DNA from: Candidatus Moraniibacteriota bacterium
Lineage (GTDB): Bacteria; Patescibacteriota; Minisyncoccia; Moranbacterales; UBA1568
Reading direction: 5' to 3'
Length of the DNA: 64,000 nucleotides
NCBI GenBank assembly: GCA_018061645.1
Contig: JAGOTT010000004.1
Location: 4,784 to 68,783, forward strand
Part shown: positions 19,827 to 53,315 of the stretch, piece by piece
Layout of the letters: each line of letters begins with the position of its first letter
Position numbering within the stretch: position 1 is the first letter of the stretch
Program-made: the position numbers and the translations under genes
Notes under the pieces: model-generated
Seen by the model: only the letters and a program-made list of their open reading frames with translations
The model's database searches: none
What the model was told of the DNA's origin: nothing

Positions 19827-19834
19827 TTTGATTG

Positions 19835-19905
19835 TCGGGGTAAGCGGAATCGAACCGCTCCTACGTGCACCCCATGCACGCGTACTGCCGATATACTATA
19901 CCCCG
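19835..19905 (-). tRNA. tRNA-Pro (anticodon GGG), no encoded CCA
   Basis: Cloverleaf read by hand: acceptor CGGGGTA/TACCCCG, anticodon arm CGTGC-ATGGGGT-GCACG, T-arm AGCGG-TTCGATT-CCGCT. Confidence 0.85.
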
Positions 19906-21362: not shown

Positions 21363-22217
21363 CTACCGTTCCGAAAAGACACACCGATTCTCATGCGCAA
21401 GACACCGGTACACGATATCCCCATCGATGTCGGTACGACGGACCGTCGCTCCGACGGCCGCGACACGGGAAAGCACGTCCGGCGACGGATGTCCATACTT
21501 GTTCTCCCCGACGGAAACAACTGCTTCCTCCGGACGGACACGGGATAGGAACAGGTCGCTCGAAGAATGCTTCGACCCGTGGTGCGCGAGCTTGAGTATT
21601 TCGGACGGCAGTGCTTCCGGGAGGAATAATTCTTCCCTCGGGAGATCTCCGGTCAGGAGGAAGTCCGTCTCACCGAAGGAGAACCGCGAGACGATACTTG
21701 TCTCATTGGACTCCCCCGCCACGTGTTCGCCGTCTTCCGGGAAAAGCGTCTCGAGACGCCCGCCTTTCGGAAGCGCGATCGAAAGACCGCGACGAGCGAC
21801 GATGCGTCCAGTATGCCCCTGTGACCCTTCAAGCGCACGCTCGAGAAGCGCGAACACCTCCGATTCCGATCGCACGGAGGTCGAGATATATGTGCCGACG
21901 CGATATCGTGAGAGAAGTTCCGGAAAACCACCGATGTGATCCGCATCCGGATGCGTGGCGACGACAGCCTCGATGGTCCGATCCCAGAACGGAATCTGCC
22001 GCGAGATTCCGGAAAGCAGTACCTTCCCGCTCCGCCCGCCGTCGATGAGGATCTGATTCCCTCCCTGCGAAATCAGGATCGCGTCCCCTTGTCCGACGTC
22101 GAGAAACACCACCTTCGTTTCCCTGGCATTCCTCCACGCGACATACGCAAATATTCCGCCGAGCAGAGCGGCGACAAGAAGTGAAACAAAAATGACCCGA
22201 AAGACCGCCTTTTTCAT
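21363..22217 (-). CDS. comEC: ComEC/Rec2 C-terminal metallo-beta-lactamase-domain protein (separate gene)
   Basis: TM start MKKAVFRVIFVSLLVAALL, then VVFLDVGQGDAILI...HPDADHIGG...LKLAHHGSKHSSS. The ATG at 22215-22217 overlaps the upstream stop as ATGA. Confidence 0.8.
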   Translation of the reverse strand: MKKAVFRVIFVSLLVAALLGGIFAYVAWRNARETKVVFLDVGQGDAILISQGGNQILIDGGRSGKVLLSGISRQIPFWDRTIEAVVATHPDADHIGGFPELLSRYRVGTYISTSVRSESEVFALLERALEGSQGHTGRIVARRGLSIALPKGGRLETLFPEDGEHVAGESNETSIVSRFSFGETDFLLTGDLPREELFLPEALPSEILKLAHHGSKHSSSDLFLSRVRPEEAVVSVGENKYGHPSPDVLSRVAAVGATVRRTDIDGDIVYRCLAHENRCVFSER

Positions 22218-23692
22218 ATCCTCATGATATCCGTATTCCGTTCCGGAAGAAACCCGCCTCTCCAGCGCGCGCGGATCATGATCGCCACAACAACACCGAG
22301 CACGCCATACCAGATGACCGCCTCCGTCCATCCGAAGTCCTGAAGTACTACATCCAACTCCTCGAAAGATGCCGCATACGCGGCGCCGGAGATTATGACA
22401 TGGAGCGACACATACGCCGGAAATCCGAAAACCGTGCCAAGCGTTCCGGATAGCATGCCGGCGACTCCGGCGAGAAACGAGAGGAGCATCGCTATCGGCA
22501 CAAGCGGAAGCAATATCGCGTTCGCGGGAAACGCGGCAAGGGAAAAATGTCCGAAGTTCGCGAAGATGATCGGCAGGATGAAGAGTTCGGCCGCGACCGT
22601 AAGCAGCAGCGCCTCGAGGAATATCTTCAGGAAAAACGGGATTCTTCGAAGGACACGACCAATCGGAGGTGACGCGAGGATGATTCCGGCGGTCGCTGCG
22701 AACGAAAGCAGGAATCCGAGATCGTGACGGATGATGAGCGGGTCGAAGGCGAGCATCACCGCCGCCGCGAAGAGGAGCGCATGGAACGATGCGTACCGTC
22801 GCCCGAAGAGCCATGCGAGGATAAGCGTCGACGCCATGCCGATCGCACGCACCGCGGACGGCGGCGCCCCCGAGACGAACACGAAGGCAAGCGTTCCGAA
22901 GAACGCGAAAATCGCCGCTTTCCGCCTCGGCAGAAAAAGCGCTATCCCGATAAGAAGCAGATACCCCGCGATGATGGAGATATTATACCCCGACACCGCC
23001 ACGACATGAGCGAGCCCTGCGGCACGGAAATCGTCCTTCGTTTCCGCCGGAAGGCGCCCGTCCCCGCCGAGCAGAAGCCCCGCCGCAAGACTCGACTCCG
23101 GCTCCGGCAACGCGCGCATAAGAGATTGTTCGAACCGGTCCGCGAATCGCATGAGCGCGATGGAAAGCGTACGATCCGTATCCCGCTTCTCCCACTCCGG
23201 TTTTTCACAGACAAAGCCGACGCCTCCCTTCGCGTGATACATCTGCCACTCTTCCTCCGGCAAGGAAAGCTCACAGAACAGCCTCCCCTTATCACCGAAG
23301 GAAACCGGCTCCGAAAGAGGGAAACGGACCAGAATCCTCTCTTCAGGACAAGACGTGCCTTCGCAGGATCGGAACGAGACTATCGCGTCCCGGGAAAAAT
23401 CCCTTGCCTCCGGGTTCCGGACGATTTCCACCTCACCGGACACCCGGCCGGTTTCCGGCAATCCGCGCCAATAGATCTCTTCTTCCCCCGCAATGAACCA
23501 TCCTGTCGAAAATGCAAATGCCAGAAAGAGAAAAATCGCCCCACGACGATCCGGCCATGCACCGAGCGCGGCGAAGCCAAGCGCGAACCCGAGGAGCGGA
23601 CCGACCGAGGAACCCCCATACGAAAACGTACCAAGCGCGATGCCCAGTACGAAAAGGATGAGAACGAGACGGAACACCGCGGAAACGGACAT
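22214..23692 (-). CDS. comEC: ComEC/Rec2 N-terminal competence (DUF4131 + Competence) membrane channel domain protein
   Basis: 492-aa polytopic protein with ...AGLAHVVAVSGYNISIIAG... Confidence 0.8.
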   Translation of the reverse strand: MSVSAVFRLVLILFVLGIALGTFSYGGSSVGPLLGFALGFAALGAWPDRRGAIFLFLAFAFSTGWFIAGEEEIYWRGLPETGRVSGEVEIVRNPEARDFSRDAIVSFRSCEGTSCPEERILVRFPLSEPVSFGDKGRLFCELSLPEEEWQMYHAKGGVGFVCEKPEWEKRDTDRTLSIALMRFADRFEQSLMRALPEPESSLAAGLLLGGDGRLPAETKDDFRAAGLAHVVAVSGYNISIIAGYLLLIGIALFLPRRKAAIFAFFGTLAFVFVSGAPPSAVRAIGMASTLILAWLFGRRYASFHALLFAAAVMLAFDPLIIRHDLGFLLSFAATAGIILASPPIGRVLRRIPFFLKIFLEALLLTVAAELFILPIIFANFGHFSLAAFPANAILLPLVPIAMLLSFLAGVAGMLSGTLGTVFGFPAYVSLHVIISGAAYAASFEELDVVLQDFGWTEAVIWYGVLGVVVAIMIRARWRGGFLPERNTDIMRI

Positions 23693-46824: not shown

Positions 46825-46934
46825 ATGTTTCTCTTTATTTCTCTATACGGACTATAGCAGAAAATTGATTTCAGGAAAAGCCGTCCGCAACCGATGTATA
46901 CAAAAAGCTCCCCTCATCGGGGAGCTTTCTTTTC

Positions 46935-47008
46935 TGGAGCGAGATACGGGAATCGAACCCGTGCCCTAACCTTGGGAAGGTCATGTACTACCATTATACT
47001 AATCTCGC
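46935..47008 (-). tRNA. tRNA-Gly (anticodon CCC), CCA encoded
   Basis: GCGAGAT/ATCTCGC acceptor, TGACC-TTCCCAA-GGTTA anticodon arm, ACGGG-TTCGATT-CCCGT T-arm, 3' TCCA. Confidence 0.85.
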
Positions 47009-47123
47009 ATTCACTGAAACGGACGGGATTATGCCCTAACCTTGCCTGCCCGAATCGCAATGCTTCGCTTGCGAATCGTTGCGGGCGGGGGAAGGCCACG
47101 TATTACCACTATACTATACCCGC
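47009..47123 (-). pseudogene. degenerate tRNA-Gly(CCC)-like copy with a 45-nt hairpin inserted in the anticodon loop and a deleted T-arm
   Basis: 5' half GCGGGTATAGTATAGTGGTAATACGTGGCCTTCCC, then a GC hairpin (47049-47090), then AAGGTTAGGGCA identical to the neighbouring tRNA-Gly. There is no acceptor 3' strand. Confidence 0.55.
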
Positions 47124-47235
47124 TTCGGCACGGGGATATTGTAGCACGAAAATATCCCGTGTAAAGACCGCGAACGGCTTTCCAAAAGCGCTTCGCCATG
47201 ATAAAGTGGCTTGGTAAAAATCATCGAACATCATC

Positions 47236-48678: not shown

Positions 48679-50445
48679 ATGGAACATGATCACCTCTACA
48701 GGATACGACATTCGCTCGCGCACATCCTCGCCATGGCGCTCAGGAAACGCGACCCGGGAGTGATGCTTGCGACCGGCCCCGTCACCGAAGACGGTTTTTT
48801 CTACGACGTGCGCTTCTCGGAAGGCGTCACCGTTAGCCCGGACGACTTTCAGAAGATCGAAAGCGATATGCGCGGCATCATCGCGCGAAAACTTCCCTTC
48901 GTCCGCCGGATCGTCACGGCCGACGAAGCGAGGGCTATCTTCGGAAAGAATCCGTTCAAGATGGAAATCATCGCCGAGCTCGAAAAGACTGGTACGGAAA
49001 TCACCGTTTACGAAACTGGGGATCCCGGATCGGAGTCCGGAACAAGCTTCACCGACCTCTGCGAAGGCCCCCACATCGGAAGTACCGGCGAGATTGACCC
49101 GGGATCTTTCACGATGAAAGGCATCGCCGGGGCATACTGGCACGGCGACGAACGGAATGAGATGCTTGTCCGAATTTCAGGGATCGCCTTCGAAACGAAA
49201 GCCGACCTCGAAAAATACCTTACCATGCTCGAGGAAGCGAAGAAGCGCGATCACAAGAGACTCGGCGTGGAACTCGATCTCTTCTTCATCGACGAGGAGG
49301 TCGGCAAAGGGCTCCCGATGTGGACCCCGAAAGGTACCGCCATCAAGTTCGCGCTGGAAGACATGACGCGATCGCTCGAACGCAGATACGGCTACGACCA
49401 CGTGTGCACCCCGTACCTCGGAAGCGAGCGCCTCTACAAGGCGTCCGGGCATCTCGATCATTACAAGGAGAATATGTACGCGCCCATCGACATGGACGGC
49501 AATCTCTTCTATCTCCGACCGATGGCCTGTCCACACCACATCCGGATGCTCATGCGGAAACCGATCAGCTACCGCGACCTGCCTGTCCGTTACGCGGAAA
49601 TCGCCGACTATAACCGCTACGAGAAATCCGGGGAACTCATGGGCATGATCCGTCTTCGGAAGTTCCAACTGACGGATGCGCACATCTTCGTCGCGCCGGA
49701 ACAGCTCAAGGAGGAATTCAAGAGCGTCTGTTCGCTCATTCGCGAAGGCATGGAAAAACTCGGGCTCGCCGACGCCGTCTCCTACCGATTCTCGAAACGG
49801 GATCCGAAAGACATGCACAAATACTATCCTGACGACGAACTCTGGGAAAAGGCCGAATCCGTGATGAAAGAGGCACTCGACGAATCGGGTTTCTCCTACA
49901 CGGAAGCCGAGGGCGAGGCCGCCTTCTACGGACCGAAGTTGGACGTGCAGGGACGGAACGTGAACGGGAAAGAGGACACGCTCTTCACCGCGCAGATAGA
50001 TTTCCTCCTTCCGGAAAAATTCGGACTCGAGTACACGGACCAGCACGGCGCGAAGAAGCGTCCGGTTATGATCCATCGCTCTGCTATCGGCGCACTCGAA
50101 CGGACATTCGCGTTCCTCATCGAACACTACGCCGGCGCGTTCCCCTTCTGGCTCTCACCGGTACAGACCCGCGTGATACCGATCAGCGAAACCGAGCGGG
50201 CATACGCGAAAAACATTCTCGAAAAACTCCGCGTCACGGGAATCCGCGCCGACATCGACACGTCCGATGAGACGCTCGGAAAGAAGATCCGGAACGCGAA
50301 ACTCGAGAAGATTCCCTATCTCCTCGTCATCGGAAAGAACGAGATGGCGAACGGAACCGCCACGCTCGAGAGTCGCGACCGAGGAAAGATCGGCGAAAAG
50401 ACTCCGGAAGAGATCGTGGAACTTTTCCGGAAAGAATCGGAGTGA
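48679..50445 (+). CDS. thrS: threonyl-tRNA synthetase lacking the N-terminal TGS domain
   Basis: Starts in the editing domain (HSLAHILAMAL...) and continues through the class II core and anticodon-binding domain. Confidence 0.9.
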   Translation: MEHDHLYRIRHSLAHILAMALRKRDPGVMLATGPVTEDGFFYDVRFSEGVTVSPDDFQKIESDMRGIIARKLPFVRRIVTADEARAIFGKNPFKMEIIAELEKTGTEITVYETGDPGSESGTSFTDLCEGPHIGSTGEIDPGSFTMKGIAGAYWHGDERNEMLVRISGIAFETKADLEKYLTMLEEAKKRDHKRLGVELDLFFIDEEVGKGLPMWTPKGTAIKFALEDMTRSLERRYGYDHVCTPYLGSERLYKASGHLDHYKENMYAPIDMDGNLFYLRPMACPHHIRMLMRKPISYRDLPVRYAEIADYNRYEKSGELMGMIRLRKFQLTDAHIFVAPEQLKEEFKSVCSLIREGMEKLGLADAVSYRFSKRDPKDMHKYYPDDELWEKAESVMKEALDESGFSYTEAEGEAAFYGPKLDVQGRNVNGKEDTLFTAQIDFLLPEKFGLEYTDQHGAKKRPVMIHRSAIGALERTFAFLIEHYAGAFPFWLSPVQTRVIPISETERAYAKNILEKLRVTGIRADIDTSDETLGKKIRNAKLEKIPYLLVIGKNEMANGTATLESRDRGKIGEKTPEEIVELFRKESE

Positions 50446-51968: not shown

Positions 51969-51993
51969 GTTTCCCTGAAATACGGATTACGTG

Positions 51994-52066
51994 AGCGGGT
52001 GATGGGAATCGAACCCACATCTCGACCTTGGAAGGGTCGCATAATAAGCCACTATACTACACCCGC
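51994..52066 (-). tRNA. tRNA-Gly (anticodon TCC)
   Basis: GCGGGTG/CACCCGC acceptor, CGACC-CTTCCAA-GGTCG anticodon arm, GTGGG-TTCGATT-CCCAT T-arm. Confidence 0.8.
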
Positions 52067-52857: not shown

Positions 52858-53059
52858 TGGTCGGGGTGCAGGGAATCGAACCCTGTCAACATTCCCTCCG
52901 GAACCGCGACAGCCCCCGGACTGTCGGACGATACCGCCGTCGGGGCACTCGGAATCGAACCGAGACTACCTGCTCCCAAAGCAGACGTACTGCCACTATA
53001 CTATGCCCCGACGCCGCTATCGTCCCCGCGCATGCGTACTACCGGTATACGACACCCCG
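52858..53059 (-). pseudogene. diverged tRNA-Pro(GGG)-like gene split in two, with the tRNA-Pro(TGG) gene between the halves
   Basis: 5' part (53059 down to 53011): CGGGGTG-TC-GTAT-ACCGGTA-GTAC-G-CATGC-GCGGGGA. 3' part (52939 down to 52858): ...CAGGG-TTCGATT-CCCTG-CACCCCG-A-CCA. The acceptor strands are complementary to each other. The arms GGACGATA/TATCGTCC bracket the inner tRNA. Confidence 0.5.
52940..53010 (-). tRNA. tRNA-Pro (anticodon TGG), no encoded CCA
   Basis: CGGGGCA/TGCCCCG acceptor, TCTGC-TTTGGGA-GCAGG anticodon arm, CTCGG-TTCGATT-CCGAG T-arm. Confidence 0.8.
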
Positions 53060-53200
53060 AAATAACATGACTCGGAATCCCTGCCCGCCTTTGGCGGGGA
53101 ACCGAGACTAAATCTCCTTCGGGACCACGACAGTCCCCCGGACTGTCGGATGATGATGCATCATCCCCAAACCACTTGTACTACCACTATACTATGCTCC
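53060..53200 (-). pseudogene. degenerate tRNA-Pro(TGG)-like 5' half followed by GC-rich hairpin insertions and a T-arm-like fragment
   Basis: CGGAGCA-TA-GTAT-AGTGGTA-GTAC-A-AGTGG-TTTGGGG, then ATGATGCATCAT, then CGACAGTCC-GGG-GGACTGTCG, then CTCGG-TTC[CCCGCCAAAGGCGGGCAGG]GATT-CCGAG. There is no matching acceptor 3' strand. Confidence 0.4.
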
Positions 53201-53315
53201 GAGGACCTATCCCAGTCTACCGATATCGGAGGAAAAAGCAATATCCCGCCACCATACGGGAAGCGGGATACGGCCCTATCTTTTTGTCTTGAGCGTCGCT
53301 CGAAACATCCGATAA

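Follow-up and report, generated by a model that had tools for sequence, protein, structure and literature searches.

A degenerate tRNA-Gly(CCC) gene occupies positions 47123-47009 in a 64-kb stretch of genomic DNA from a Candidatus Moraniibacteriota bacterium (hereafter the window, meaning the whole stretch that was analysed). This fossil is probably the disabled resident tRNA-Gly(CCC) gene of its lineage (allele A), displaced by an intact gene of a different allele (allele B), and represents one case of a process that recurs among Moranbacteria. In itself the Gly fossil is nothing unusual, the relic of a dead gene, but it is also a visible trace of a recurrent and apparently undescribed mode of tRNA replacement in the candidate phyla radiation (CPR). 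The strongest support for such a process comes from the tRNA-Pro locus at 52858-53201, 6 kb from the Gly fossil. The fossil and the tRNA-Gly and tRNA-Pro features described below all lie on the minus strand.

Four tRNA genes were found in the window by ARAGORN and Rfam: Pro(GGG) at 19834-19905, Gly(CCC) at 46935-47008, Gly(TCC) at 51993-52066 and Pro(TGG) at 52939-53010. The Gly(CCC) gene is the living allele B, with an encoded CCA end and an Rfam score of 65.7 bits. Directly upstream of it an earlier note had described a degenerate copy of tRNA-Gly whose anticodon loop holds a hairpin, and every feature of that description is present on the minus strand. The 5′ part of the fossil (47089-47123) is 35 nt long, GCGGGTATAGTATAGTGGTAATACGTGGCCTTCCC, and extends through anticodon base C36 in standard numbering; it divides into GCGGGTA, TA, GTAT, AGTGGTA, ATAC, G, TGGCC and TTCCC, providing the acceptor 5′ strand, the D-arm, the 5′ strand of the anticodon stem and the TTCCC segment. 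Matches to the D-arm motif were far above chance (six observed, none expected). A palindromic insert of 45 nt (47044-47088; CCGCCCGCAACGATTCGCAAGCGAAGCATTGCGATTCGGGCAGGC) lies between C36 and A37 and is followed by 12 nt of resumed tRNA sequence, positions 37-48 (47032-47043; AAGGTTAGGGCA), identical to the intact gene. The fossil lacks both the 5′ strand of the T-stem and the 3′ strand of the acceptor stem. Its final 23 nt (47009-47031; TAATCCCGT CCGTTTCAGTGAAT) are of uncertain origin and may be either a T-arm remnant or an imported copy of a −10/leader region. Aligned as a remnant of the T-arm and 3′ end of allele B, this stretch scored no better than shuffles, and aligned as a duplicate of the locus’s own −10/leader it fared about as poorly, again no better than shuffles. 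The leaders preceding allele B in two related loci, L085 and L110 (CCGTCTGAAC and CCGTTAGAAC), resemble it. Contigs L143 and L144, from other sequencing runs, carry the same arrangement base for base, apart from one single-nucleotide polymorphism in the leader; because these are independent assemblies, the arrangement is not an assembly artefact.

Orthologous loci were gathered by means of the neighbouring DUF4012 protein, which is encoded on the other strand and starts 113 nt upstream of the fossil. The window’s DUF4012 protein is 100% identical to a protein of a Candidatus Moranbacteria metagenome-assembled genome, and in the closest relative, L121, the neighbouring DUF4012 protein is 92% identical. 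The L121 site holds a single intact tRNA-Gly(CCC), GCGGGTATAGTATAGTGGTAATACGTGACC...TACCCGCTCA, with promoter, leader and terminator as in the window. Alignment of the two loci yields one 115-nt indel and a 3′ half of different, allele-B sequence. The earlier note regarded the degenerate copy as a second copy upstream of the gene proper, an order that the L121 locus reverses: since the 5′ part of the fossil matches the first 35 nt of the intact L121 tRNA at 34 positions, the degenerate copy is, judged by this orthologue, the lineage’s resident gene (allele A) and was replaced by a later arrival, the intact gene (allele B). The marks of a tRNA pseudogene are all present in the fossil, namely a functional homologue, disabling lesions and an intact orthologue in a relative. 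The acceptor stems of the two alleles (GCGGGTA/TACCCGC in A and GCGAGAT/ATCTCGC in B) are mutually incompatible. The window’s living allele B is identical at 74 of 74 positions to the gene in L129, a 74% relative, and to that in L130. A separate search of a species-representative collection with the threonyl-tRNA synthetase (ThrRS) of the window (48679-50445) returned one related locus, a Saccharibacteria bin at 61%, which has no tRNA there; the remaining 79 ThrRS matches listed were nearly all from Firmicutes-type bacteria, at 40-45%. The DUF4012 neighbour, unlike ThrRS, has many Moranbacteria relatives in metagenomes.

The tRNA-Pro locus consists of three layers, a fossil (b), a split gene (c) and a living gene (d) nested inside (c). 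Fossil (b) (53060-53201) carries a three-hairpin insert in the anticodon loop, a T-loop insert, CCCGCCAAAGGCGGGCAGG, and a degenerate 3′ acceptor strand. It is common to the window and L121, with 7 differences in about 140 nt by visual count. In L121 fossil (b), which has hairpins in the anticodon loop and the T-loop and lacks the acceptor 3′ strand, stands ahead of gene (c), intact there and of allele P2 (CGGGGTG...CACCCCGA); L122, L128 and L131 have one clean tRNA-Pro(TGG) each. In the window the P2 gene that is intact in L121 is interrupted behind the anticodon stem by about 162 nt that include a complete tRNA-Pro(TGG) of allele P1. The 5′ half of P2 (53030-53059) is identical to the intact L121 gene at 30 of 30 positions, and the 3′ half (52858-52892) at 31 of 32, with an acceptor strand, CACCCCG, that pairs with 53059-53053. 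The cassette between the halves (52893-53029) is composed of a GCGGGGA junction, the leader CGATAGCGGCGT, the living P1 gene, a complementary trailer CGGCGGTATCGT, a hairpin CCGACAGTCCGGGGGCTGTCG and a small hairpin CGGTTCCGGAGGGA. At the junction GCGGGGA replaces TTTGGGA, and two anticodon-stem bases are missing relative to the recipient allele. The predicted fold combines an outer acceptor stem and T-arm with an inner cloverleaf that sits on an extended leader/trailer stem (z = −3.75).

The same nested architecture is found in L135 and L136 (70% relatives), where the flanking stem, GGACAATAACGCTGT / ACAGCGGGATTGTCC, co-varies. The small hairpin co-varies as well (CTCC-GCA-GGAG in L135 and L136, TTCC-GGA-GGGA in the window and CCCC-GAA-GGGG in L121); the compensatory pairings of both the flanking stem and the small hairpin were scored by eye on three to four copies. 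The native single-copy Pro loci of L122, L128 and L131 have no leader/trailer stem. Judged against the L121 sequence, the Pro insert is a tRNA-bearing cassette inside the anticodon loop of a cognate gene and a genuine insertion. Filled and empty versions of a site with a tRNA-bearing cassette are thus found twice, in the window’s Pro locus against L121 and in L085 against L110.

Across the Moranbacteria three alleles (A, B and C) occupy a single tRNA-Gly(CCC) site, and their distribution on the DUF4012 tree is patchy. Allele A is the living gene in L121, L122, L126, L082, L083, L085, L086, L088, L089 and L090, allele B in the window, L125, L128, L129 and L081, and allele C in L131-L136 and L146. 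On a neighbour-joining DUF4012 tree, sister genomes carry different alleles in three pairs: L121 (A) and the window (B), L126 (A) and L129 (B), and L083 (A) and L081 (B). That close relatives differ in the living allele implies that, at fixed sites of the chromosome, whole tRNA genes turn over faster than the neighbouring proteins diverge. In related loci fossils are seen on one side or the other of the living gene. L128 has allele B directly behind the promoter and a degenerate allele A 3′ end downstream, L084 has an allele B 3′ end remnant downstream of the living gene, and L085 has, in order, an A 5′ fossil, a B 5′ fossil and a living A gene. The flanks of L085 and L110 are 93-96% identical, and both loci have the same outer A 5′ fossil and an outer A 3′ end beside the native terminator; between these outer remnants L110 has a living B-like gene and L085 has the B fossil plus living A. 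To judge from these shared flanks, this is nesting with turnover between very close relatives. An ancestral A-B tandem with differential loss was considered and rejected, because A remnants fall on opposite sides of B, upstream in the window and downstream in L128.

A purely local origin would dispense with any mobility of cassettes. By this account a partial tandem duplication was followed by decay of the promoter-proximal copy, unrelated palindromes were inserted by chance, and alleles were later exchanged by homologous recombination. A duplication ending inside the gene yields exactly what is seen, that is, a 3′-truncated upstream copy, a short leader and an intact copy, and the spacer before the living gene is loosely like the native leader. 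Against these points stand the Pro layers (c) and (d), where one allele has truly been inserted into a gene of another that remains whole in L121, and the occurrence of different alleles as fossil and living gene in the window, L085, L110 and L111. The same hairpin positions are moreover reused with unrelated sequences, and a conserved, co-varying leader/trailer stem surrounds the inner tRNA in the window and L135 and is missing in L122, L128 and L131. A local origin is therefore considered unlikely.

Hairpins at fixed positions recur in other fossils. The upstream tRNA-Gly fossil of L132 and L134 carries a 29-nt palindrome at TTCCC/AAG, the position used in the window, with an unrelated sequence, and its T-loop is interrupted as well, by an insert of two hairpins that separates G57 from A58. 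A 35-bp two-hairpin element, TCCGGCATGCGCCGGACGCCCCGCGAATGCCGGGG, is found in the T-loop coding sequence TTCG/ATTCC of both tRNA-Gly and tRNA-Pro fossils, with CG on both sides (L132 1770-1810 and 8985-9025; L135 13780-13820; L136 13610-13650). The T-loop insert of the tRNA-Pro fossil in L132 is the reverse complement of that in the tRNA-Gly fossil (34/35), and the presence of the element in either orientation implies insertion at the DNA level rather than an RNA-processing signal. The dyads in the loop-coding parts of these genes are similar to core sites of recombinases, and the 35-bp insert, with CG on each flank and no fixed orientation, may point to a staggered cut of 2 bp. In the fetched Moranbacteria loci neither the core of the 35-bp element nor the CCTGCCTACCGGCAGGCAGG palindrome of L084, L085 and L111 was found outside tRNA fossils. 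Every hairpin-bearing copy in these loci has an intact copy just downstream of it or inside it, as expected if disruption is tolerated only with a spare gene. A search of a viral collection for a phage source, with T-loop hairpin and tRNA-Pro hairpin patterns, gave six chance matches in unrelated high-GC contigs, or none. The long leaders of the tRNA-Gly fossils in L132 (1880-2150) and L134 (6700-6900), on the minus strand, also hold several degenerate repeats of about 35 nt (GGCGGGCATTGCCACGCCGAAGCA-like), as well as an older tRNA-like 5′ fossil, GCGGGTAGAGGAGTTGGTAGCACCGAGCTCCCAGCAG, that is common to L131.

The earlier note's remark on the canonical intron position leads to a reading of the Gly copy as a functional intron-containing gene, from which the 45-nt hairpin would be spliced to give a working tRNA. 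The insert does lie in the anticodon loop, where it is predicted to stack on the anticodon stem, and hairpins recur at the same position in L132 and L134. Its placement at exactly the canonical intron position is correct for the loop and incorrect for the site, which is 36/37, one nucleotide 5′ of 37/38; because the insert ends in C, it cannot be shifted to 37/38. Excision would restore no cloverleaf, as the T-stem lacks its 5′ strand and the acceptor stem its 3′ strand; without the hairpin, the fold of the sequence is no more stable than those of shuffles (z = +0.98). Only the 5′ part aligns with the Rfam tRNA model, and its 13.7 bits fall short of the threshold of 29. In the predicted fold there are symmetric internal loops of 1 to 2 nt and no bulge-helix-bulge motif (3-nt bulge, 4-bp helix, 3-nt bulge), and 45 nt is far below the size of a group I intron, whose catalytic core (P3-P9) takes about 200 nt or more. 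The insert is missing from the intact L121 orthologue, the gene directly downstream is intact and has the same anticodon, and the related T-loop insert, found in both orientations, has a property of DNA and not of RNA. In the intron mode of ARAGORN the fossil was not called at default stringency, and the extra calls at relaxed stringency were implausible. No intron, ribozyme or other RNA family apart from the four tRNAs was detected by Rfam at either tRNA locus (gathering thresholds and E ≤ 10) or in the whole window at E ≤ 1. Collectively, these observations bring the intron reading close to refutation, and the fossil is not regarded as an intron-containing tRNA gene.

A stable hairpin is predicted for the 45-nt insert (−21.7 kcal/mol in a 53-nt context; z = −2.9), and none of 200 shuffles was as stable. 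With as many as 3 mismatches allowed, the 31-nt core of this sequence was found only once in the 64-kb window; dispersed palindromic elements of the REP or MITE type are characterised by multiple copies in a genome. The earlier note had reasoned that a hairpin unique in the genome, in a region that is not transcribed, would denote an inert pseudogene; the lack of a second copy in the window agrees with the first part, and the location of the region between the sole promoter and terminator speaks against silence. The recurrence of GC-rich hairpins at the tRNA-Pro locus, also noted earlier, is borne out, and the hairpins there belong to two further tRNA fossils. A ‘CCGCC..GGCGG’ hairpin family was considered and set aside, as such a stem is frequent by chance in GC-rich DNA of this kind (91 matches per 0.5 Mb).

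Aligned with the tRNA-Gly cassette of a distant relative, L110, minus its tRNA body (leader, GCGA..CTCA and trailer), the hairpin reached a score of 46, compared with a shuffle mean of 14.5 and maximum of 33 (0 of 2000 reaching 46), and its 3′ arm aligned with the L110 trailer alone at a score that 0 of 2000 shuffles reached. The hairpin loop, GCGAAGCA, opens with the same four bases as allele B. In an analogous way, Pro fossil (b) has its ATGATGCATCATCAT hairpin at the place of the leader-tRNA-trailer unit in the cassette. The 45-nt hairpin may accordingly be read as the collapsed stem of an earlier cassette, with leader, GCGA..AGCA and trailer kept and the tRNA lost. This reading is held at somewhat less than an even chance, because the similarity may partly be that of a GGCAGG-type palindrome; ends resembling ..GGCAGG are also present in other tRNA fossils. 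For the Gly fossil itself, membership among the cassettes is thus indicated indirectly, through the alignment of its hairpin with the L110 flanks.

The only promoter-like site on the minus strand lies 5′ of the fossil, and the only terminator lies 3′ of the living gene. The promoter (47138-47165) has TTTACA and TACAAT boxes separated by a 16-nt spacer with TG, with 10 of 12 consensus matches, and its sequence is conserved in L121, L122, L125 and L128. The native leader ATCCCCGTGCCGAA (47124-47137) also stands directly before allele A in L121 and before allele B in L125 and L128. The intrinsic terminator (46904-46928), AAAGCTCCCCGATGAGGGGAGCTTT followed by a T-run, is a palindrome that the scan listed on the plus strand, and it is homologous to the terminator behind allele A in L121. 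With a single promoter ahead of the pair and a single terminator behind it, fossil and living gene most likely share one transcript, in which the fossil forms the 5′ leader of the living pre-tRNA.

This placement for co-transcription is also the starting point for a different explanation, in which the tRNA-like 5′ part and the hairpin are kept as a functional structured leader that serves processing, stability or regulation, or acts as a tRNA-like decoy. The window shares a 24-nt A-type 5′ fragment, without any difference, with L085, L110 and L111, and Pro fossil (b) differs by about 5% between the window and L121 (visual count), where the flanking intergenic DNA looks much more divergent. The fossil is further predicted to fold as a three-way junction without a T-arm, in which its 5′ GCGGG pairs with CCCGU at 47027-47023 and which is made up of a pseudo-acceptor stem, the D-arm and a long anticodon-hairpin arm. 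This pairing is probably fortuitous, and the fold of the whole 115-nt fossil is unremarkable (z = −1.44). The arrangement is absent in the closest relative and most loci, the extent of the fossil and the sequence of the hairpin vary by lineage, and the 3′ parts decay freely. A functional leader of this kind is accordingly judged very improbable.

The most probable account of the displacement of the resident by allele B is as follows. The resident allele A gene is interrupted between C36 and A37 by the 45-nt palindrome and has lost the 5′ strand of its T-arm and the 3′ strand of its acceptor stem, and a complete allele B gene placed directly downstream has taken over the tRNA-Gly(CCC) function. 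The fossil, transcribed as the 5′ leader of the pre-tRNA, would be removed by an RNase P cut at 47008, remain unspliced and decode nothing. More generally, small gene-less segments, each consisting of a whole tRNA with short, partly self-complementary flanks, have settled in or beside the loop-coding parts of a cognate gene and left 5′ and/or 3′ fossils behind, sometimes nested like Russian dolls. The comparison of loci shows that whole genes of other alleles displace the residents, that the breakpoints are at loop-coding positions, that the cassette flanks are conserved and structured, and that turnover takes place among close relatives. Spread between strains could proceed through DNA uptake and homologous recombination, with the conserved tRNA halves and neighbouring genes as arms, which would explain why the junction nucleotides at the Pro locus already differ from the recipient allele. 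A ComEC-type competence protein homologue, relevant to DNA uptake as a route for the exchange of tRNA alleles, is encoded among core genes at 22214-23692 (minus strand; Pfam Competence domain, E = 2e-48).

A bolder version of this proposal is that Moranbacteria harbour gene-less miniature mobile cassettes of about 130-170 bp, each with a complete tRNA in a complementary leader/trailer stem and small hairpins. The anticodon loop of the cognate resident gene would be the specific target of such cassettes, and the T-loop that of related hairpin modules. A cassette would destroy the resident gene and supply its replacement, and would thus be selfish and self-compensating. Repeated rounds would build the Russian-doll arrays, and the 45-nt hairpin would be an emptied cassette. 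This version is put forward tentatively and is judged rather less likely than not to be correct.

Several observations weigh against the displacement of the resident as set out here. The resumed stretch AAGGTTAGGGCA has a variable region of the allele-B type, where allele A reads AAGGTTAAGCGA; positions 44-48 of the fossil are thus B-like and not A-like, and the history requires a chimeric donor or a later conversion patch. The Gly locus is not nested, as no A 3′ remnant lies behind B, unlike at the Pro locus, and it may therefore have a different history. In L132, L134 and L135 one and the same allele provides both fossil and living gene, cases for which local duplication is an adequate explanation and which favour the purely local origin discussed above. 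The 5′ arm of the hairpin matches the L110 leader alone only weakly (75 of 2000 shuffles reach the score), and the similarity of the 3′ arm to L110 may partly reflect the common palindrome. The status of the fossil as a leader is deduced from the placement of promoter and terminator, and the searches for hairpin copies and recombinases covered 64 kb of the genome.

Further traces of tRNA sequence and of larger insertions surround the Gly genes of relatives. In L122 an 18-nt direct repeat of the tRNA 3′ end lies about 150 nt downstream, and repeated 3′ fragments occur behind tRNA-Gly(TCC) in L131, L132 and L135. Downstream of living tRNA-Gly(CCC) and tRNA-Gly(TCC) genes in L122 (2400-2560) and L131 (12365-12815 and 6605-6720) the terminator is followed by an inverted tRNA 3′ end (e.g. 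CGGGTGATGGGAATCGAACC) and then by one or more direct copies of the 3′ end, which in L131 terminate tandem units of about 110 nt. These 3′-end copies look like att-site scars or miniature elements with inverted ends that mimic the tRNA 3′ end. The genes 3′ of tRNA-Gly(CCC) vary among loci and include an HTH_3 and M48-peptidase pair (L132 265-1333), an LTD/PKD protein (L146 2093-3946), a CarboxypepD_reg protein (L134 3377-6367) and an unknown open reading frame (ORF; L131 6256-6612); this varied content suggests that larger DNA, too, is preferentially inserted at tRNA-Gly(CCC).

The fossil could on such grounds be the scar of an integrase-mediated element, a phage or island that integrated in the tRNA gene and was later nearly all deleted. 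The breakpoints in the anticodon loop and T-loop, the 18-nt repeat in L122, the repeated fragments behind tRNA-Gly(TCC) in L131, L132 and L135 and the variable region 3′ of tRNA-Gly(CCC), with for example the HTH_3 and M48-peptidase pair in L132, all agree with this explanation, and an archaeal precedent exists for a 5′ fragment upstream of a reconstituted gene (PMC3293823). The products of integrase are hybrids of resident and element, and here the living gene is allele B at both ends; the classical hybrid model was rejected, given the incompatible acceptor stems of A and B. The 14-23 nt between fossil and living gene contain no ORF and leave no room for an integrase. A Pfam scan of 35 ORFs of the window revealed neither an integrase nor a transposase, and the region is core genome. 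An integrase scar is thus thought distinctly improbable, more so than a purely local origin, and displacement of a resident gene by a complete gene of another allele is the preferred reading.

No description of tRNA introns, fossils or nesting in Patescibacteria, CPR or Moranbacteria was found in the literature. CPR genomes are thought to hold a near-minimal, non-redundant set of tRNAs, and despite this presumed economy, fossils of displaced genes are present at two of the four tRNA loci of a core-genome window. With regard to annotation, degenerate hairpin-bearing tRNA copies in CPR genomes should not be counted as intron-containing genes. If cassettes that carry their own replacement tRNA do exist, they would constitute a new strategy by which a mobile element can invade an essential gene, standing beside the self-splicing of introns and inteins and the partial target restoration of tRNA-integrating islands, and they would offer a bacterial counterpart to the archaeal debate on the origin of split and intron-containing tRNA genes.

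Among known systems, islands that integrate into tRNA genes usually restore the 3′ portion of the gene, which makes a hybrid of the working gene. The anticodon loop and the T-loop are reportedly the classical sublocations of integrase crossover, as Williams is said to have set out in 2002. Island integration into tRNA genes is a subject of the Islander database (PMC4383910), and tRNA gene fragments that are mis-annotated as genes have been described (PMC9897764). The fossils resemble such island-displaced fragments in having a tRNA target, a partial copy beside a working gene, breakpoints in the anticodon loop/T-loop region and function preserved by tRNA sequence of the incoming DNA (PMC4383910, PMC9897764). 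Islands differ in that they restore the gene they split, and a large integrase-carrying element parts the regenerated gene from the fragment. In the present case a whole gene of another allele is supplied, the 5′ fossil lies 14-23 nt upstream of it, and there is neither an integrase nor an element body.

Another near likeness is provided by the tRNA-Thr(GGU) locus of Caldiarchaeum subterraneum (Sugahara et al. 2012, PMC3293823), where a 1.8-kb insert encoding a recombinase parts fragment and gene, and where intron gain was ascribed to recombination with the tRNA-like site of a mobile element. Both systems have a 5′ fragment upstream of a different version of the gene, and in both, close genomes differ at the locus. 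The archaeal genes that are disrupted stay functional by bulge-helix-bulge splicing (PMC3293823), whereas the bacterial copies described here are dead. The whole replacement gene here is carried by a segment of tens to about 160 nt, with no recombinase present.

The anticodon-loop insertion is stacked on the anticodon stem, like the introns of archaeal and eukaryal tRNAs, and the halves of Pro (c) in the window can pair in the predicted fold, like those of split tRNAs. The differences from tRNA introns and from split or permuted genes are the lack of a bulge-helix-bulge, the 36/37 site, the incomplete exons and an intact paralogue that is always present. To our knowledge, no splicing endonuclease pathway has been reported in bacteria. 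Double-hairpin elements are found in the mitochondrial DNA of Allomyces. Repetitive hairpin-forming elements have likewise been described in sponge mitochondria, and the hairpins in the tRNA fossils are similar to these mobile GC-rich organelle elements in being single or double hairpins of tens of nucleotides, non-coding, that appear as insertions (PMC2800124). The organelle elements are dispersed in many copies; the hairpins described here, in the DNA examined, occur only inside tRNA fossils.

Group I introns and inteins home into conserved, essential genes. The tRNA replacements share with them an insertion into an essential gene that is harmless to the host and the possibility of spread to empty alleles through flanking homology. 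They differ in that harm is avoided by a spare gene and not by self-splicing, no homing endonuclease is evident, and any drive is putative.

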